Assembly: GCF_046105845.1 (NCBI RefSeq)
Contig: NZ_CP151004.1
Source of the DNA: Escherichia coli
Lineage (GTDB): Bacteria > Pseudomonadota > Gammaproteobacteria > Enterobacterales > Enterobacteriaceae
Strand: one strand, 5' to 3'
DNA length: 64,000 nucleotides
Within the stretch, counting starts at the first letter, position 1. Each line of letters opens with the position of its first letter. A program made the position numbers and the translations under genes. Below are positions 7,137 through 61,263 of the stretch, in pieces. Under the pieces are notes generated by a model. That model ran no database searches and was not told the origin of the DNA. It saw nothing but the letters and a program-made list of their open reading frames with translations.

Positions 7137-7507
7137 CTATACTTCCTCCGTGTTTTCGATGAGATGTAAGGTAACCAATTTTTGCCGATTCGGCTAATGC
7201 GTTTCCATTATCAAATCGATAAGTTTTACCTTACAACCTTCGTAAGACAACTTTGTGAACTTTGCACCGCCAGCGGCGATAAAAAGTAAAATGGCCCCCT
7301 TTCCAGGTGACCGTGTAATCTGAACTACCCTTTGGTATCTTCAGCGCCTGCCTGCAGGCTGAGGTGTTGCCCTTACAAATGCAACAACGACATGGATTAC
7401 AACACCCTCATAAACAAAGGGCAATCACCTGATCTAAGCTCTTACCTATGACAGTGATAGGTTATGCCTTTTACTCGACTTTTGCACTGACTGAAAAGGA
7501 CAAATTA
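7137..7507. promoter_or_regulatory. Divergent ahpC / dsbG control region (OxyR-regulated promoters expected here)
   Basis: Intergenic region between the divergently oriented ahpC and dsbG; OxyR control of ahpCF and dsbG is established knowledge. The exact operator was not mapped from the sequence. Confidence 0.4.
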
Positions 7508-8254
7508 ATGTTAAAAAAGATACTTTTACTGGCTCTGCTTCCTGCAATCGCCTTCGCAGAGGAACTTCCTGATCCAGTAAAAGCGATTGAAAAACAGGGC
7601 ATTACAATCATCAAAACGTTCGATGCTCCCGGAGGAATGAAAGGTTATCTCGGCAAGTATCAGGATATGGGCGTCACCATCTACCTGACTCCAGATGGTA
7701 AGCACGCTATCTCTGGTTACATGTACAACGAGAAAGGTGAAAACCTGAGTAACACACTTATCGAAAAAGAAATTTACGCACCAGCCGGACGCGAAATGTG
7801 GCAACGGATGGAACAATCCCACTGGCTCCTCGACGGTAAAAAAGACGCGCCGGTCATTGTCTACGTCTTCGCCGATCCGTTCTGCCCATATTGTAAACAG
7901 TTCTGGCAGCAGGCTCGTCCGTGGGTAGATTCTGGCAAAGTGCAATTAAGAACATTGTTGGTTGGGGTTATCAAACCAGAAAGCCCGGCGACAGCAGCGG
8001 CAATTCTTGCCTCCAAAGATCCCGCAAAAACCTGGCAAGAATATGAAGCCTCTGGTGGCAAGCTTAAGCTAAACGTGCCTGCAAACGTAAGTACAGAGCA
8101 AATGAAAGTGTTAAGCGACAACGAGAAACTCATGGACGATCTGGGGGCAAATGTCACACCAGCTATCTATTACATGAGTAAGGAGAATACGCTGCAACAG
8201 GCCGTGGGGTTGCCCGATCAGAAAACGCTTAATATCATTATGGGGAATAAATAA
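7508..8254 (+). CDS. dsbG: Periplasmic disulfide isomerase/chaperone DsbG
   Basis: ORF 7448..8254; start chosen at the [17 protein letters not shown] signal peptide (248 aa); CPYC active-site motif is present. Confidence 0.9.
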
Positions 8255-8266
8255 AAGGTAATTCAT

Positions 8267-8302
8267 GGATGGTTGAACTATATCCCTGCTTTTCAACCAT
8301 CC
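8267..8302 (+). terminator. Strong hairpin downstream of dsbG (candidate terminator or boundary element)
   Basis: Perfect 11-bp inverted repeat ggatggttgaa / ttcaaccatcc with a 14-nt loop, 13 nt after the dsbG stop; no clear U-tract. Confidence 0.4.
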
Positions 8303-8463
8303 TAAAAAAGCATGAATTGCTCGCTCTGCCCTAAGTGGCTGTGCTATTTTAGTAAAACTTAATCCTGAGTTAAGCAAAAAAAAATAATCAATAAAAATAT
8401 ATACGCAAAAAAACATTGATTAAGTGAATATATCATGGAAGAAAAATATAACCGGAGTAGTGT

Positions 8464-9366
8464 ATGGCCAATCTCTACGACTTGAAAAAGTTCGACTTAA
8501 ATCTTCTTGTCATATTTGAGTGTATTTATCAGCATTTAAGCATTAGCAAGGCTGCTGAATCACTATATATCACCCCGTCAGCCGTGAGCCAGTCGTTACA
8601 ACGCTTACGTGCGCAATTTAATGACCCTTTATTCATTCGCTCAGGAAAAGGTATCGCGCCGACGACGACAGGGTTAAATCTGCATCACCATCTTGAGAAA
8701 AATCTCAGAGGCCTTGAACAAACAATTAATATAGTCAATAAGTCCGAACTAAAGAAAAACTTTATTATCTACGGTCCTCAGCTCATTTCTTGCTCTAATA
8801 ATAGTATGCTGATCCGCTGCCTACGGCAAGATGCCTCTGTCGAGATTGAGTGCCATGATATCCTCATGTCAGCAGAGAATGCTGAAGAACTGTTGGTTCA
8901 CCGCAAAGCCGATCTGGTGATCACCCAAATGCCAGTGATCAGCCGTTCCGTCATTTGCATGCCATTGCATACAATTCGCAATACTCTAATTTGTAGTATT
9001 AAGCATCCGCGAATTACTGACAATAGCACTTATGAACAAATTATGGCAGAAGAGTTCACCCAATTAATATCCAAATCAGCAGGAGTTGATGATATTCAAA
9101 TGGAAATAGACGAGAAGTTTATGAATCGCAAAATTTCATTTCGTGGTTCCTCTTTGCTGACAATCATTAATAGCATTGCAGTTACAGATTTACTGGGAAT
9201 AGTCCCCTATGAACTTTATAACTCCCACCGTGACTTTCTTAATTTAAAAGAGATAAAACTAGAACATCCGTTACCTTCAATAAAGCTTTACATTTCCTAT
9301 AATAAATCTTCTTTAAACAATCTGGTGTTCTCACGATTTATTGACCGTCTAAATGAGTGTTTTTGA
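8464..9366 (+). CDS. ybdO: LysR-family transcriptional regulator YbdO
   Basis: 300 aa ORF with N-terminal helix-turn-helix typical of LysR regulators; the gene is visibly AT-rich; synteny dsbG-ybdO-ybdN. Confidence 0.85.
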   Translation: MANLYDLKKFDLNLLVIFECIYQHLSISKAAESLYITPSAVSQSLQRLRAQFNDPLFIRSGKGIAPTTTGLNLHHHLEKNLRGLEQTINIVNKSELKKNFIIYGPQLISCSNNSMLIRCLRQDASVEIECHDILMSAENAEELLVHRKADLVITQMPVISRSVICMPLHTIRNTLICSIKHPRITDNSTYEQIMAEEFTQLISKSAGVDDIQMEIDEKFMNRKISFRGSSLLTIINSIAVTDLLGIVPYELYNSHRDFLNLKEIKLEHPLPSIKLYISYNKSSLNNLVFSRFIDRLNECF

Positions 9367-9512
9367 TATATAACTTCAGACAGCTACTATAACTTTCACC
9401 TATTTATTCACAGCGCGAATGAAAAATAAAACACTCTGCTTTTCAGTGTTTACTTTATAATTAACAGTCTTATCTCACTGATCACCCTGTAACGTTCAGA
9501 GAGCGTCTTCAG

Positions 9513-10733
9513 ATGTCTATTTATAAAATTCCTCTTCCGCTCAATATTCTGGAAGCTGCAAAAGAACGTATTACCTGGACACTTAACACCCTACCCCGCG
9601 TTTGTGTCTCATTTTCTGGCGGCAAAGACTCTGGTTTAATGCTGCATCTGACAGCCGAACTTGCTCGACAAATGGGCAAAAAAATCTGTGTTTTGTTTAT
9701 CGACTGGGAGGCGCAATTCTCTTGCACCATTAACTATGTTCAGTCCCTGCGCGAGTTGTACACCGATGTGATCGAAGAGTTTTACTGGGTTGCGCTCCCG
9801 CTTACGACGCAAAATTCCCTTTCACAATACCAACCCGAATGGCAGTGCTGGGAACCTGATGTCGAATGGGTACGTCAGCCCCCGCAAGATGCGATAACCG
9901 ATCCTGACTTTTTCTCCTTTTACCAGCCTGGCATGACCTTCGAACAATTTGTGCGTGAGTTTGCCGAATGGTTTTCGCAAAAACGCCCGGCGGCGATGAT
10001 GATCGGCATCCGTGCGGATGAGTCCTACAACCGTTTTGTCGCCATCGCCAGTTTAAATAAACAACGTTTTGCCGACGATAAACCCTGGACTACGGCCGCA
10101 CCAGGCGGGCATAGCTGGTACATTTACCCCATTTACGACTGGAAAGTGGCTGATATCTGGACCTGGTATGCAAATCATCAAAGTCTCTGCAACCCACTGT
10201 ATAACCTAATGTATCAGGCAGGCGTTCCTCTGCGTCATATGCGAATTTGCGAACCTTTTGGCCCGGAGCAACGACAAGGATTATGGCTCTATCACGTTAT
10301 CGAACCGGATCGCTGGGCTGCTATGTGCGCACGAGTCAGCGGGGTAAAAAGTGGCGGCATTTACGCCGGACATGACAATCATTTTTATGGTCATCGGAAA
10401 ATCCTCAAGCCCGAACATTTAGACTGGCAGGAGTATGCATTATTGCTACTCAACAGCATGCCGGAGAAAACAGCTGAGCATTATCGCAATAAAATCGCCA
10501 TTTATTTGCACTGGTATCAGAAAAAAGGCATCGAGGTTCCACAAACCCAGCAAGGGGACATTGGCGCGAAAGATATCCCCTCCTGGCGGCGAATATGCAA
10601 AGTTTTACTCAATAACGATTACTGGTGTCGGGCATTATCATTTAGCCCGACCAAAGCGAAGAACTATCAGCGTTATAACGAACGAATAAAAGGAAAACGT
10701 CAGGAATGGGGGATACTATGCAACAACGATTAA
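9513..10733 (+). CDS. ybdN: PAPS-reductase-like (adenine nucleotide alpha-hydrolase) protein YbdN, function unknown
   Basis: 406 aa ORF; SGGKDS P-loop motif near the N-terminus; recognised as YbdN (IbrA-like). Confidence 0.85.
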   Translation: MSIYKIPLPLNILEAAKERITWTLNTLPRVCVSFSGGKDSGLMLHLTAELARQMGKKICVLFIDWEAQFSCTINYVQSLRELYTDVIEEFYWVALPLTTQNSLSQYQPEWQCWEPDVEWVRQPPQDAITDPDFFSFYQPGMTFEQFVREFAEWFSQKRPAAMMIGIRADESYNRFVAIASLNKQRFADDKPWTTAAPGGHSWYIYPIYDWKVADIWTWYANHQSLCNPLYNLMYQAGVPLRHMRICEPFGPEQRQGLWLYHVIEPDRWAAMCARVSGVKSGGIYAGHDNHFYGHRKILKPEHLDWQEYALLLLNSMPEKTAEHYRNKIAIYLHWYQKKGIEVPQTQQGDIGAKDIPSWRRICKVLLNNDYWCRALSFSPTKAKNYQRYNERIKGKRQEWGILCNND

Positions 10734-11335
10734 CGCAGGATTTAACCCAATTTCTCGCCAGCTTGCCGGAAGACGATCGCATCAAAGCGATTAATGAAAT
10801 CCGCATGGCGATCCATCAGGTTAGCCCCTTTCGAGAAGAGCCAGTGGATTGCGTTCTGTGGGTTAAAAACAGCCAACTTATGCCTAATGATTACAACCCA
10901 AACAACGTGGCACCACCCGAAAAAAAACTGCTGAAAAAATCCATTGAAATAGATGGTTTTACCCAACCCATTGTGGTCACGCATACGGATAAAAATGCCC
11001 TGGAAATCGTGGATGGTTTTCACCGCCATGAAATTGGTAAAGGCTCATCATCGTTAAAATTACGCTTAAAAGGTTATTTGCCGGTGACCTGTCTGGAAGG
11101 TACGCGTAATCAACGCATCGCCGCGACTATTCGTCATAATCGCGCCCGTGGACGTCACCAAATCACTGCCATGTCAGAAATCGTCCGTGAACTCAGCCAG
11201 TTGGGATGGGACGATCATAAAATCGGCAAAGAGCTGGGAATGGACGGCGACGAAGTGCTGCGCCTGAAGCAAATTAACGGCCTGCAAGAACTGTTTGCCG
11301 ACCGTCAATTTTCCCGCGCCTGGACGGTTAAATAA
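10706..11335 (+). CDS. ybdM: ParB/sulfiredoxin-like domain protein YbdM, function unknown
   Basis: 209 aa ORF overlapping the ybdN 3-prime end by 28 nt (an alternative start at MQQR, 10718, is possible); recognised as YbdM (IbrB-like). Confidence 0.8.
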   Translation: MGDTMQQRLTQDLTQFLASLPEDDRIKAINEIRMAIHQVSPFREEPVDCVLWVKNSQLMPNDYNPNNVAPPEKKLLKKSIEIDGFTQPIVVTHTDKNALEIVDGFHRHEIGKGSSSLKLRLKGYLPVTCLEGTRNQRIAATIRHNRARGRHQITAMSEIVRELSQLGWDDHKIGKELGMDGDEVLRLKQINGLQELFADRQFSRAWTVK

Positions 11336-12496
11336 CTACAGCTGGCGCAGGCGTTCAGCTGCTGCCAGCAACGTCGATTCCTTCTTGGCAAAACAGAGAC
11401 GAATCAGTTTATGGGGGAAGGGATCGGCGCAAAACACCGACAGCGGAATCGCCGCTACACCGTGCTCCCGCGTCAGCCACTGGCAAAACTCAACGTCATC
11501 CAGGGTAGAAACCGCGCTGTAATCCACCAGCAAAAAGTATGTACCTTCACACGGTAAAATCTCCAGCCGGCTTTCATTTAAAGCATTCACCAGAATATCG
11601 CGTTTCTGGCGATAAAAGTCCGGTAACGCAAGATAATGCTCAGGTTCTGCACGTAGCATATCCGCAAGTGCCAGCTGTGCCGGGGTATTCACCGAAAAGG
11701 TCAGATACTGGTGTACCTTGCGAATTTCAGCGCTGATGGGCGCTGGCGCAACGCAATAACCCACTTTCCAGCCGGTCATATGATAGGTCTTGCCAAATGA
11801 AGAAACTGCCACCGCCCGCTCACGCAGCTGCGGATGCGCCAGCACGCTGGCATGGCCCTGTTGTGAAAAGTTGATGTGCTCGTAAACTTCATCGCTAATG
11901 ACAAAAATCTCGTGCCCGCCGATCGCCTGCCACAGAGCGGAGAAATCAGCCTGCTGCCAGACAGTTGCACTGGGGTTATGCGGGGTGTTGAGGATCACCA
12001 GTCGGGTGCGCTCGCTTAACAATGCGGCAAATTCCTGCCAGTCCACGCGAAAATGCGGTGGTTGCAGTGCAATACGTTTCACTATTCCCCCCGAAAGCGC
12101 GATGGCGGGCGCGTAACTGTCATAGCTGGGATCAAAGCAGATCACTTCATCACCATTGCGCACCAATGCGGTAATCGCTGCATATAACGCTTCCGTCGCC
12201 CCTGCCGTTACGGTGATATCGCTATCGGCATCCGGTTGATAGCCATACAGACGTTCCGTTTTCTGAGCAATCGCCTCGCGCAAGGCCTGCACGCCAGTCA
12301 TAGGCGCGTATTGGTTTGCCCCCTGGGCAACGTGGTACGCCAGCCGCTCTTGTAAATAGCGCGGACCATCAAAATCAGGAAAGCCTTGCGAAAGGTTAAT
12401 CGCCTGGTGTTGCTGCGCCAGCGCGCTCATCTGGGTGAAAATAGTGGTGCCAAGTTGTGGAAGTTTGCTTTGTGGAATCAGAGGGTTATTTGTCAT
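11336..12496 (-). CDS. ybdL: PLP-dependent methionine aminotransferase YbdL
   Basis: 386 aa class I aminotransferase ORF; synteny. Confidence 0.9.
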   Translation of the reverse strand: MTNNPLIPQSKLPQLGTTIFTQMSALAQQHQAINLSQGFPDFDGPRYLQERLAYHVAQGANQYAPMTGVQALREAIAQKTERLYGYQPDADSDITVTAGATEALYAAITALVRNGDEVICFDPSYDSYAPAIALSGGIVKRIALQPPHFRVDWQEFAALLSERTRLVILNTPHNPSATVWQQADFSALWQAIGGHEIFVISDEVYEHINFSQQGHASVLAHPQLRERAVAVSSFGKTYHMTGWKVGYCVAPAPISAEIRKVHQYLTFSVNTPAQLALADMLRAEPEHYLALPDFYRQKRDILVNALNESRLEILPCEGTYFLLVDYSAVSTLDDVEFCQWLTREHGVAAIPLSVFCADPFPHKLIRLCFAKKESTLLAAAERLRQL

Positions 12497-58842: not shown

Positions 58843-59094
58843 CTAAGGGCGCGTTGATACCGCAATGCGGTGTAATCGCGTGAATTATACGGTCAACCCT
58901 TGCTGAGTCAATGGCTTTTGATCTGGTTGCTGAACAAGTGAACGACCGCGTCTGATTTTCTGATTTATTTCGCTATAGCGGCAAACAAACGCACACCGCT
59001 GCGCGTCTGAATCAAGAAAACCCGTATTTTCATGTATCAAAGTACAATTTCCCGACCTAACGGAAAATTGTCCGATCCAATGAGACTGGTAACT

Positions 59095-59727
59095 ATGAAA
59101 CCAACGTCGGTGATCATTATGGATACTCATCCTATCATCAGAATGTCTATTGAAGTTCTGTTGCAAAAAAACAGTGAATTGCAGATTGTCCTGAAAACGG
59201 ATGATTACCGCATAACCATCGATTATCTCCGAACCCGTCCTGTTGATTTAATCATTATGGATATAGACTTGCCCGGTACAGACGGTTTTACCTTCCTGAA
59301 AAGGATCAAACAAATCCAGAGTGCAGTGAAAGTATTATTTTTATCATCGAAATCAGAATGCTTTTATGCTGGCAGAGCGATACAAGCTGGTGCTAACGGT
59401 TTTGTCAGTAAATGCAATGATCAGAATGATATTTTTCATGCCGTTCAGATGATCCTCTCCGGATACACTTTCTTTCCCAGCGAAACGCTCAACTATATAA
59501 AAAGCAATAAATGTAGCACGAATAGTTCAACGGTCACTGTGCTATCTAATCGTGAAGTGACCATTTTACGTTATCTGGTTAGCGGATTATCAAATAAAGA
59601 AATTGCCGATAAGTTATTACTTAGCAATAAAACAGTTAGCGCGCATAAATCTAATATTTATGGCAAGCTAGGTTTGCATTCAATTGTAGAGCTTATCGAC
59701 TACGCCAAATTATATGAATTAATATAA
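59095..59727 (+). CDS. fimZ: Fimbrial response regulator FimZ (LuxR/NarL family)
   Basis: ORF 59032..59727 trimmed to MKPTSVIIMDTHPII (210 aa). Confidence 0.92.
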   Translation: MKPTSVIIMDTHPIIRMSIEVLLQKNSELQIVLKTDDYRITIDYLRTRPVDLIIMDIDLPGTDGFTFLKRIKQIQSAVKVLFLSSKSECFYAGRAIQAGANGFVSKCNDQNDIFHAVQMILSGYTFFPSETLNYIKSNKCSTNSSTVTVLSNREVTILRYLVSGLSNKEIADKLLLSNKTVSAHKSNIYGKLGLHSIVELIDYAKLYELI

Positions 59728-60255: not shown

Positions 60256-61263
60256 TCATTGATAATCGACGCGTAAATAACCCAGCGCGCTAAACGGCCC
60301 TTCGGTCGGTTTTTGACCGGTAATACTGATAGGCCAGGCGCGAAGTGTGACATTGGCTGCCGCAGCTGCATCCAGACGGAAAGGAATAACGCTATTGAGA
60401 TCGTTAGGCGTGATCGGCGTATCGTTCTGATCGGCGACAATAAAACCTAAATCCTGATTGTCCGACACCATCGCCTGACCAGAAACGGCACTGGCTTCCA
60501 GACGCATTGTTAAATAAGCCTGCGCAGCAACATTCGTACATTTGATCGCAATATTCCTGGTTTGCGGCATGACACCATTAGGTCGATTCCCCGGCCCTGC
60601 CGCACTAAATAACGATGCACCGATATCACCAAAATCAAATTCAACAATTTGCCCGGCATTTAATTCGCAGTTTTGCGGTACTTCAACCCGGCCACCAAAA
60701 CTAATGGTATAAACAGGTGTAACCAACGGATCGTAAGGCGTTGATGTCACATACACGGTAAACATCACCTGTCTGGGGATCTCCACCATGTTAATAAAGG
60801 GCCGAATAACCTTTAAACGAAATATCAAACGAGAATCCATCACCCCGAACGGAAGGTTTTGCGAAACGTTAGGATCTGTTCCCATACGAATATAATTTTG
60901 CGGGGGAAATTGAATATCCATCACGCTATCAACCAGACTCATCGCACCTAATAGATAATCATTTAATTGCATATATTTATAATTATCGATAGTTTCCTGA
61001 ACAATAAAGTTGGTGACATAACTACGGTATGTATAATTCACCAGCGTGCCGGGTGGACAAATTGCTGACACACCTACCCAGCCGGATTTTTCCGGTAAAA
61101 CAACAATCTGCCCTGGCTGGTTATTGGTGCTATTAAAGACATTTGAGAGATCATAGTGTTCATCTTCTGCTACGCCAGTACTATTTGCACAAACAGTAGC
61201 CCAGGATATGTTTGCCAGACACAAACATGCCATTGCCAATAATAATCTGCAGATTATCTTCAT
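60256..61263 (-). CDS. sfmH: Fimbrial adhesin-like subunit SfmH
   Basis: 335 aa ORF with signal peptide; exact start uncertain. Confidence 0.85.
   Translation of the reverse strand: MKIICRLLLAMACLCLANISWATVCANSTGVAEDEHYDLSNVFNSTNNQPGQIVVLPEKSGWVGVSAICPPGTLVNYTYRSYVTNFIVQETIDNYKYMQLNDYLLGAMSLVDSVMDIQFPPQNYIRMGTDPNVSQNLPFGVMDSRLIFRLKVIRPFINMVEIPRQVMFTVYVTSTPYDPLVTPVYTISFGGRVEVPQNCELNAGQIVEFDFGDIGASLFSAAGPGNRPNGVMPQTRNIAIKCTNVAAQAYLTMRLEASAVSGQAMVSDNQDLGFIVADQNDTPITPNDLNSVIPFRLDAAAAANVTLRAWPISITGQKPTEGPFSALGYLRVDYQ

Follow-up and report, generated by a model that had tools for sequence, protein, structure and literature searches.

What reaction do the products of ybdN and ybdM carry out? YbdN and YbdM are among the few conserved proteins of Escherichia coli K-12 that have clear enzyme folds and whose reaction is still to be named. 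They are encoded next to each other, behind the LysR-family gene citR (ybdO), in a 64-kb window of an E. coli chromosome, by which we mean the whole stretch of DNA analyzed here. We find that citR-ybdN-ybdM represents the IbrAB module on the enterobacterial chromosome, where it is normally silenced, and we propose, with a probability of roughly 40%, that YbdNM is a DNA-targeted adenylyl-transfer or modification module that is kept silent in E. coli. The locus itself is already annotated and its regulation already published, and its detection by scanning the window is not a discovery. New here are the exclusion of the sulfur and defense-system labels, the evidence that the two genes are obligately paired in different domains of life, the changes found in the ParB pocket, and the accessory SNF2, GNAT, and c0 genes of other lineages.

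The question extends well beyond E. coli because of the unusual spread of the pair, which, tightly coupled and with a nearly invariant ParB-like member, occurs in gut Bacteroidales, Firmicutes (including a Listeria operon conserved at species level), Verrucomicrobiota, and an Asgard archaeon, as well as in phage genomes by the hundred and on virulence plasmids of Klebsiella, Salmonella, and E. coli. Were it to modify DNA, a new chemistry would join the few enzymatic DNA marks known, and the activation of silenced prophage and virulence genes by IbrAB could be accounted for; if it is a regulator, it would represent a new class of ParB-type activator dependent on an adenylating enzyme. With the repressor (CitR) and the silencer (H-NS) identified, either answer is directly testable in K-12.

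The IbrAB Pair

A cellular survey of one genome per species yielded 80 IbrA loci, spanning the Enterobacteriaceae, Bacteroidota, Firmicutes, Verrucomicrobiota, Alphaproteobacteria, Helicobacter, one actinobacterium, and one Heimdallarchaeote. An IbrB homolog adjoins IbrA in 76 of these loci: in 75 it is the next gene downstream, in the same orientation, and in one it immediately precedes IbrA. The four loci with no IbrB neighbor are contig ends. IbrAB is an obligate two-gene module. The E. coli locus belongs to this family, defined by the pairing of COG3969 with COG1475, as both protein types are present and adjacent. Most of the flanking genes in clustered neighborhoods are unrelated housekeeping genes, indicating that the module is self-contained. 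No IbrA-IbrB fusions were found among the long family members, whose extra segments were an N-terminal domain of unknown type, what is probably a GNAT tail, and an unrelated fragment of an ABC-ATPase.

The IbrA and IbrB open reading frames (ORFs) overlap in 53 of the 75 downstream loci and lie within 15 nucleotides (nt) of each other in 19 more (72/75 together). The initial annotation of the window had noted a 28-nt overlap of ybdN and ybdM and taken it to imply translational coupling; the overlap is real and conserved, recurring at the same 28 nt in ten enterobacterial orthologous loci, and makes coupling probable. The length of 28 nt is correct when counted from the annotated ybdM ATG at 10706, and becomes 16 nt from a second in-frame ATG at 10718, which fits the 205-residue orthologs of Citrobacter.

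A second enterobacterial clade, of the IbrAB type and about 54–60% identical to YbdN, is located elsewhere in chromosomes and on plasmids. A distant search in E. coli returned 8088 places in 5420 genomes, with up to five per genome, and IbrAB-type genes are carried by 855 plasmids, including those of Klebsiella (323), Escherichia (204), Ralstonia (129), Shigella (123), and Salmonella (34). The pair adjoins iroBCDN and fecIA on a Klebsiella virulence plasmid (locus L089), has both a LysR gene and a saf/afaD fimbrial operon as neighbors on an IncF plasmid of Salmonella (L088), and lies beside a PerC-family regulator and near cah in a chromosomal island of E. coli O157:H7 (L090); the Shigella virulence-plasmid matches, among the matches listed, are short remnants of the IbrA gene. 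The IbrAB genetic island of E. coli ECOR-9 reportedly activates prophage eib genes, going by the title of a 2002 article by Sandt, Hopper and Hill. IbrA and IbrB of ECOR-9 share with YbdN and YbdM their two families, their gene order, and the overlap of their genes. They differ in setting: YbdNM is fixed in the core chromosome, has a dedicated LysR repressor in CitR, and is under H-NS control, whereas the IbrAB-type copies reside on islands, plasmids, and prophages and lack citR.

YbdN-like genes are also present in 224 phage records, and at least 237 stretches were confirmed out of 600 pattern matches in IMG/VR. In phages of Streptococcus and Lactobacillus the pair comes after the lysis module, and in a Pseudoalteromonas phage it forms the end of the replication module; Arthrobacter phage Laroye has a shorter phosphoadenosine phosphosulfate (PAPS) reductase gene flanked by two ParB-like genes, next to a methyltransferase and the terminase.

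Organization of the Locus

The gene order at the locus is ahpF, ahpC, dsbG, citR (ybdO), ybdN, ybdM, ybdL, hcxA (ybdH), ybdD, cstA, in which the three genes of interest are flanked by dsbG on one side and by the minus-strand ybdL on the other. The earlier description of the locus as a LysR regulator followed by PAPS-reductase-like and ParB-like proteins is correct in gene content and coordinates, and the SGGKDS P-loop that it placed in ybdN is present. The features referred to below are the following (HTH, helix-turn-helix; GC, fraction of guanine and cytosine).

8255-8463, no strand: dsbG-citR spacer, AT-rich promoter/regulatory region of citR, GC 0.316
8464-9366, plus strand: citR (ybdO), LysR-type repressor of ybdNM; Pfam HTH_1 and LysR_substrate, NCBIfam CitR equivalog
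9367-9512, plus strand: citR-ybdN spacer, candidate ybdN promoter and operator, GC 0.349
9513-10733, plus strand: ybdN (IbrA family), PP-loop ATP pyrophosphatase with PAPS-reductase fold and DUF3440 helical domain
9615-9632, plus strand: PP-loop motif SGGKDS, YbdN residues 35-40 (translation checked)
10005-10034, plus strand: GIRADESYNR, YbdN residues 165-174, the G-x-R-x-x-E-S-x-x-R of the IbrA alignment (translation checked)
10221-10661, plus strand: DUF3440 region, YbdN residues 237-383 (Pfam PF11922)
10706-10733, plus strand: ybdN/ybdM overlap, 28 nt (16 nt if ybdM starts at 10718)
10706-11335, plus strand: ybdM (IbrB family), with N-terminal helical extension, ParB/sulfiredoxin domain, and C-terminal HTH
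10886-10903, plus strand: NDYNPN, YbdM residues 61-66, aligned with ParB box I
11012-11026, plus strand: DGFHR, YbdM residues 103-107, at the position of the ParB GERR arginine patch
11132-11158, plus strand: RHNRARGRH, YbdM residues 143-151, invariant family signature
11162-11293, plus strand: C-terminal HTH region of YbdM

YbdN Is a PAPS-Reductase Fold without Conserved Cysteines

The RefSeq product name of YbdN, phosphoadenosine phosphosulfate reductase, describes its fold and not its function. The PAPS-reductase-like fold is confirmed both by Pfam, which identifies PAPS_reduct (PF01507, residues 30-234, E 1.2e-13) followed by DUF3440 (PF11922, residues 237-383, E 5e-23), and by fold search, and the protein has a full-length match to phrog_2302 (E 4.5e-77, residues 2-387). 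An AlphaFold model built on 50 diverse homologs is confident (predicted local distance difference test score 90.7), and its closest solved relatives are flavin adenine dinucleotide (FAD) synthase, CysD, and adenosine phosphosulfate (APS)/PAPS reductase, enzymes that transfer adenylyl groups or handle adenylyl sulfate; only ∼165–180 residues align. The best match of the IbrA family profile against PDB sequences is likewise CysD (E 3.4e-10); profile and fold searches were needed here, as single-protein sequence searches of the PDB returned nothing useful. The DUF3440 domain (∼170 residues) is predicted to be helical, and fold search found no solved structural relative for it.

In an alignment of 50 IbrA homologs, the PP-loop residues G37, K38, and S40 are invariant, as are D64, E66, and D214, and G165, R167, E170, S171, and R174 of YbdN are at least 90% conserved. 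Among the same 50 sequences, conservation of cysteine nowhere exceeds 60%. This excludes the catalytic cysteine of CysH, the Fe-S triad and cysteine dyad of DndC, and a cluster of the TtuA/NcsA type, and YbdN therefore cannot act as a reductase or transfer sulfur by an Fe-S/persulfide route. The NCBIfam scores of YbdN are far under the cut-offs for PAPS reductase (TIGR02057, 35.5 bits against 254.2; PRK02090, 34.3 against 154) and for DndC (TIGR03183, 22.3 bits against 290.4). We reject membership of the CysH family of PAPS/APS reductases, since the fold is present and the catalytic C-terminal cysteine (ECGLH-type) and a score above the cut-off are not. The chemistry that remains for YbdN is that common to the whole clan, adenylyl transfer dependent on adenosine triphosphate (ATP).

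YbdM Combines an Altered ParB Pocket with an HTH

YbdM matches phrog_2159 over its full length (E 2.8e-68) and carries the RefSeq name “IbrB-like domain-containing protein.” Domain and fold searches bear out the ParB/sulfiredoxin-like fold proposed for it and recover both a ParB/sulfiredoxin (Srx) N-domain and an HTH. Relatives with this fold include sulfiredoxin, SbnI, and free serine kinase, which are small-molecule- or protein-directed kinases.

Conservation was assessed in 59 IbrB sequences from bacteria, phages, and one archaeon. Identity between the E. coli protein and those of Firmicutes, Bacteroidota, phages, and the Heimdallarchaeote is 41–57%, and 30 columns are invariant. These include N61, N64, P65, and N66 of YbdM, which align with the N-x-F-Q-P-R of Noc/ParB; D103, G104, and R107 (with H106 at least 90% conserved), which align with the G-E-R-R of Noc/ParB; and R143, H144, N145, R146, A147, R148, G149, and H151. 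By its position, this last motif (RHNRARGxH) would be expected to stand in for ParB box III (ENLQR). The ParB pocket of YbdM is thus retained and chemically altered.

Unlike Spo0J, Noc, KorB, and VirB, IbrB has NPN in place of QPR and DGFHR in place of GERR, and it has no ParA partner. YbdM (209 residues) ends ∼13 residues after the last HTH helix and has no C-terminal dimerization domain, no parA-like gene is adjacent, and its score against the NCBIfam ParB model TIGR00180 is 15.8 bits, with a cut-off of 58.45. Assignment to the partition-type ParB proteins that form cytidine triphosphate (CTP) clamps is rejected: the ParB/Srx domain and HTH are there, and the GERRxR and QPR/ENLQR motifs, the dimerization domain, and the ParA partner are missing. 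Proteins of the DndB/SspE type carry DGQHR or DGQQR, compared with DGFHR in IbrB.

Accessory Genes in Other Lineages

E. coli YbdNM is accompanied by neither of the enzymes that extend the module elsewhere, an SNF2 helicase and a GNAT-like protein, nor by the small protein c0. The helicase (∼415 residues; Pfam SNF2-rel and Helicase_C) matches ZorD, DpdE, and DrmD in PADLOC, with E values of 2e-13 to 4e-26 against the DpdE models, and is encoded directly upstream of the pair, with overlapping stop and start codons, in 15 genome loci and about a dozen viral loci. In Listeria monocytogenes, lmo1309-lmo1311 are given as IbrB, IbrA, and an SNF2 family protein in a list of genes specific to Listeria sensu stricto (PMC5736727).

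The same upstream position is occupied in 18 Bacteroidales loci by a gene for a 137-residue GNAT-like protein (c2). Taken alone, this protein is weakly GNAT-like, with three PDB profile matches at E 0.3–1.1 and a Pfam E value of 0.17, and Pfam alone gives no GNAT assignment. In three viral loci (L152, 4236-6026; L155; L156), a longer helicase of ∼596 residues is encoded directly upstream of IbrA-IbrB, and in L152, the sole fusion tested, the extra C-terminal part is an acetyltransferase (phrog_1249, E 2.5e-9), which makes the GNAT reading of the 137-residue protein credible. A Chitinophaga locus (L076, 5843-8005) encodes the helicase, the 137-residue protein, IbrA, and IbrB consecutively, a split version of the fusion.

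The c0 protein (∼130 residues) has the motifs WEDxxxGMY, SCEHNLTN, and AWIGQAACC and is found in many viral loci (L094, L097–L099, L107, L121, L126, L128, L129, and others) and in two genome loci (L026, L032). It is encoded as a separate protein between IbrB and IbrA or, in 20 viral loci and L026, extends IbrB as a C-terminal fusion, and it has no relatives in PHROG, NCBIfam-type models, or the PDB. The SNF2, GNAT, and c0 additions suggest nucleic-acid chemistry, with multi-step modification in some lineages.

Proposed Function and Its Alternatives

Both folds, the strict coupling of the genes, the conserved ATP-pyrophosphatase site, and the altered ParB pocket with its HTH are the observations on which we base our proposal. 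In E. coli, on the published evidence, H-NS silences the AT-rich citR region and CitR represses the ybdNM operon. When expressed, YbdN and YbdM would be coproduced by translational coupling and may work as one two-protein complex, which the C-terminal HTH of YbdM would bring to target sites on DNA. The ParB/sulfiredoxin pocket of YbdM, with its invariant NPN, DGFHR, and RHNRARGxH motifs, unlike the CTP-binding motifs of partition ParB proteins, could hold a nucleotide or another phosphorylated ligand. YbdN would then adenylylate, and so activate at the expense of ATP, a nucleic-acid target, most likely DNA, where YbdM directs it, the resulting step being a non-sulfur marking or modification. 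Transfer of adenosine monophosphate, as in FAD synthase and CysD, fits a minimal set of two genes better than substitution chemistry does, as neither a sulfur nor an amine donor is required. Other lineages add an SNF2 translocase, a GNAT-type acyltransferase, and/or c0 to this core, which fits a multi-step nucleic-acid modification. The physiological outcome could be changed expression or handling of horizontally acquired DNA, and phage versions may serve in genome marking or takeover. A wider form of the proposal is more tentative, and we consider it possible and on balance doubtful: IbrAB would be the core of an unrecognized modification family in which a cysteine-free adenylyltransferase and a noncanonical ParB/Srx-HTH protein lay down a DNA mark that is neither sulfur nor deazaguanine, with optional SNF2, GNAT, and c0 components, phages and plasmids using it to mark their genomes or to escape silencing and the enterobacterial copy being locked by CitR and H-NS.

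Several points weigh against a DNA-modifying role. The family has yet to be credited with a modification, a substrate, or an enzymatic activity, and DNA as the target is suggested only by the HTH, the ParB fold, and the association with a helicase, leaving RNA and protein as alternatives. The GNAT assignment of the 137-residue protein is weak by itself. The E. coli copy may be simpler or purely regulatory, given that it has no helicase, GNAT-like protein, or c0, and the sole published phenotype of a homolog, transcriptional activation, requires no covalent chemistry. The initial annotation knew of no established biochemical function for YbdNM, and we found no biochemical study of YbdNM, IbrAB, DUF3440, lmo1309-1311, or COG3969 in the searchable literature to mid-2026; a 2022 study describes YbdM as “completely uncharacterized” (PMC8764527).

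The pair could instead be purely regulatory, with YbdM/IbrB loading on DNA in the manner of VirB or KorB, perhaps as a clamp gated by a nucleoside triphosphate (NTP), YbdN acting as an accessory nucleotide hydrolase, and no covalent mark being made; it would counteract H-NS silencing or otherwise activate target operons. We regard this, the main alternative, as somewhat unlikely. The only phenotype reported for the family, from the 2002 title on IbrAB and the eib prophage genes, is said to be of this kind. IbrAB-type paralogs stand beside acquired virulence operons or regulators (iroBCDN, saf/afaD with the LysR gene, and the PerC-family gene), IbrA remnants persist on Shigella virulence plasmids, and the locus itself lies within H-NS-bound DNA (PMC4720273). 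However, a plain regulator needs no adenylating enzyme, and the PP-loop and nucleotide-binding motifs of IbrA are invariant across phyla, with IbrA always present alongside IbrB, which for its part is without the GERRxR/ENLQR CTP motifs and the C-terminal dimerization domain of clamp-forming ParB proteins. The SNF2/GNAT association and the occurrence of the pair in lytic-type phages with terminase and methyltransferase neighbors favor DNA enzymology, and the pair is also present in organisms that have no H-NS (Firmicutes, Bacteroidota, and an archaeon). The modifying and regulatory accounts are compatible: transcription could be activated by a DNA mark or by the complex bound to DNA. An improbable variant keeps the chemistry and changes the target to RNA or protein, as in a TilS/TmcA-like tRNA modification or a Cap9/QueC-like conjugation onto a protein, possibly IbrB. 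A helicase joined to a GNAT domain is the architecture of the tRNA cytidine acetyltransferase TmcA, and the kinases among the ParB/Srx-fold relatives of IbrB would suit a protein target. Against these resemblances, the HTH of IbrB is of the DNA-binding type, the helicase is SNF2-class and like double-stranded DNA translocases (ZorD, DpdE, DrmD) rather than the RNA helicase of TmcA, and IbrA is structurally nearest to FAD synthase, CysD, and APS reductase, not to TilS or QueC.

Anti-phage or anti-plasmid defense, possibly toxin-antitoxin-like or abortive, with a ParB-like sensor and a PP-loop effector, is a little less probable again. The module is small, self-contained, patchy, and horizontally spread, it is carried on plasmids and prophages, its associated helicase resembles ZorD, DpdE, and DrmD, TASmania lists L. 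monocytogenes lmo1309/lmo1310 as a toxin-antitoxin pair through guilt by association, and YbdM protein is 29-fold higher in cells carrying a blaCTX-M-15 plasmid (PMC8764527). PADLOC v2.0, however, returned no system-level match, and membership of any system that it covers is rejected: in the E. coli pair it gave weak partial matches of YbdN to DndC (E 1.9e-5) and BrxP (E 1.2e-4) and an MTase_II match of YbdM, and weak DndC/BrxP matches recurred for one distant IbrA, with none for distant IbrB proteins. A small sample of flanking genes (30 genes at 15 chromosomal modules, 2023 database) contained no convincing defense match and four generic ABC-ATPase/HTH matches. The E. coli copy is a fixed core locus that is kept off and not part of an island, the pair is common in phages with no obvious lysogeny context, and overexpression of YbdM costs only about 10% in growth rate (PMC8764527). 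The defense context raised in the initial annotation accordingly finds no support in PADLOC or in this sample of neighbors. Sulfur chemistry, whether PAPS/APS reduction or phosphorothioation of DNA after the fashion of Dnd/Ssp, is highly improbable, and we reject it for YbdNM as largely refuted by the missing cysteines. The Pfam family and RefSeq name, the weak DndC and BrxP matches, and the CysD profile match all lean toward it, and the sole observation that keeps it alive is the rise of the whole cys regulon (cysDNC, cysJI, cysAWU, and tcyP) by 2–2.8 log2 upon citR deletion, which derepresses ybdNM (PMC9068703, Table 1); this accompanied a strong shift of the flagellar regulon and may be indirect. 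Besides the cysteine content and NCBIfam scores given above, neither the window nor the 80 loci contain cysteine desulfurase, DndD/E, or SspB/C partners.

Comparison with Known Systems

Pairings of a PP-loop enzyme with a ParB-like protein had been noted to recur in DNA modification, and this part of the comparison stands: DndC-DndB and SspD-SspE likewise combine an ATP pyrophosphatase of the PAPS-reductase clan with an NTP/DNA-binding protein of the ParB superfamily, and Dpd includes DpdB. The accompanying sulfur analogy fails because no cysteine is conserved. DndC has a three-cysteine 4Fe-4S site and a cysteine dyad (PMC10853773), both lacking in IbrA; the pair has no DndA/D/E or SspA/B/C partners, and IbrB has an HTH. 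With these cysteine features absent, no dnd or ssp genes at the locus or recurring in the 80 loci, and scores under the cut-off, we reject membership of Dnd/Ssp.

The Dpd 7-deazaguanine system comprises the transglycosylase DpdA, the ParB-like ATPase DpdB, and the SNF2-type helicase DpdE. It resembles the IbrAB module in that a ParB-like NTPase assists a DNA-modifying enzyme and in having an SNF2-family helicase in the cluster. Membership is rejected, as no gene like tRNA-guanine transglycosylase recurs beside the pair and only the helicase is DpdE-like. Type 4 BREX (BrxP) is rejected as well, the PADLOC match of 18.5 bits being confined to the PP-loop stretch and brx genes being absent from the locus and from the 80 loci. 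YbdN differs from FAD synthase and CysD in its additional DUF3440 domain, its obligate ParB-like partner, and the lack of a link to flavin or sulfate pathways. The module is thus neither CysH, Dnd/Ssp, type 4 BREX, Dpd, nor a partition ParB, one defining feature of each having been tested and found wanting. By analogy, it resembles DndC-DndB, SspD-SspE, and Dpd, which join a ParB-superfamily NTPase to a nucleic-acid-modifying enzyme.

Regulation by H-NS and CitR

YbdO is a LysR-family protein that, by its score of 462.9 bits against the NCBIfam equivalog NF047710 (cut-off 400), is assigned to the CitR equivalog family. The ybdO promoter is repressed by H-NS in strains K-12, SE11, and SE15 (Higashi et al. 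2016; PMC4720273). Rodionova et al. (2022; PMC9068703) renamed the protein CitR and reported a peak upstream of citR by ChIP-exo (chromatin immunoprecipitation with exonuclease treatment); deletion of citR raised ybdN by 5.5 log2 and ybdM by 2.5 log2, so that CitR represses ybdNM. The H-NS silencing suggested in the initial annotation is hence right for citR (PMC4720273), and ybdNM is silenced through CitR (PMC9068703).

A perfect 11-nt inverted repeat at 8267-8277/8292-8302 (GGATGGTTGAA, 14 nt, TTCAACCATCC) lies just 3′ of the dsbG stop and is not followed by a T-run on the plus strand; it could be a protein-binding site or a noncanonical terminator. The citR-ybdN spacer contains a sigma-70-like site at 9363-9390, such sites being no more numerous than in shuffled sequence, and an imperfect inverted repeat at 9418-9435/9445-9462, the only product of an inverted-repeat search of this spacer for an operator or parS-like site. 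Promoter and terminator scans gave no more sites than shuffled sequence, and phylogenetic footprinting of the spacer gave none, the sequence being too divergent between genera.

Base Composition, Inheritance, and Allele Classes

The characterization of the locus as an AT-rich module is accurate for citR (GC 0.389) and for the spacers before and after it (0.316 and 0.349), compared with 0.519 for the whole window. citR is the second most AT-rich of the 43 long ORFs (z = −2.6), and the three lowest-GC 400-nt windows of the entire 64 kb fall within 9001-9600. It does not extend to ybdN and ybdM, which at 0.476 each are ordinary (z about −0.85 among long ORFs), and the label fits the regulator and spacers only. 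Elsewhere in the window, the plus-strand ORF at 59032-59727 equals citR in compositional atypicality and is the window minimum (GC 0.372, z = −2.9), and the minus-strand ORF at 60256-61263 is also AT-rich (0.445).

The region was found in 5422 of 5426 complete E. coli genomes, in 5321 of them at 80% coverage or more, and the order ahpC-(dsbG)-citR-ybdN-ybdM-ybdL is kept in Citrobacter, Enterobacter, Kluyvera, Pseudocitrobacter, and Superficieibacter. Near-universal presence and conserved synteny identify an old, vertically inherited locus and not an insertion, in keeping with the initial annotation on this point and contrary to its suggestion of horizontal acquisition, which as a recent event we reject for this core locus. 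Strong purifying selection on ybdN and ybdM, with a ratio of nonsynonymous to synonymous substitution rates (dN/dS) of 0.02–0.05, indicates that they encode working proteins, although these are kept off in the laboratory. citR is found next to the pair only in the Escherichia/Citrobacter/Enterobacter group, where it has been lost twice and where CitR evolves fast (50–60% protein identity, compared with 73–85% for YbdN).

Within E. coli there are two deep allele classes, the best match per genome being 95–99% identical in 3632 genomes and 80–90% in 1754. Their divergence is limited to about 8100-9600, a stretch that takes in citR with its two spacers and the initial ∼300 nt of ybdN; against two comparison loci (L001, L002), the window is 76–80% identical inside this stretch and 96–100% in the flanks. 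Between classes citR has 79.7% nucleotide and 88.4% protein identity (dS about 2.1, dN/dS 0.03), and the first 110 residues of CitR, including the HTH, are identical. Divergence of the ybdO region between strains was reported by Higashi et al. (2016; PMC4720273). The two classes may reflect an ancient balanced polymorphism or import from another species. E. coli strain G8, isolated from the feces of a healthy human, is a natural knockout of the module, with an IS1A element in place of citR, ybdN, and the 5′ portion of ybdM (L003, 7248-8295), of which only the last 294 nt are left.

Neighboring Features

The stop codon of ybdM directly abuts that of the convergent ybdL (11335/11336) with zero spacer. 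No terminator-like hairpin was found between the two genes, and two terminator-like sites lie inside ybdL (11438-11458, minus strand); with abutting stops and no terminator, read-through transcripts of both genes would collide. Upstream, the longest ORF of dsbG begins at 7448, and the RefSeq start is 60 nt downstream (equivalent to 7508), the extension at 7448-7507 probably not being translated. Rfam identifies no structured RNA within citR-ybdN-ybdM, and its single match, outside the locus in the ahpC-dsbG intergenic region, is to the enterobacterial small RNA STnc70 (7281-7374, minus strand; 44.1 bits with a gathering score of 40, E 1.2e-6).

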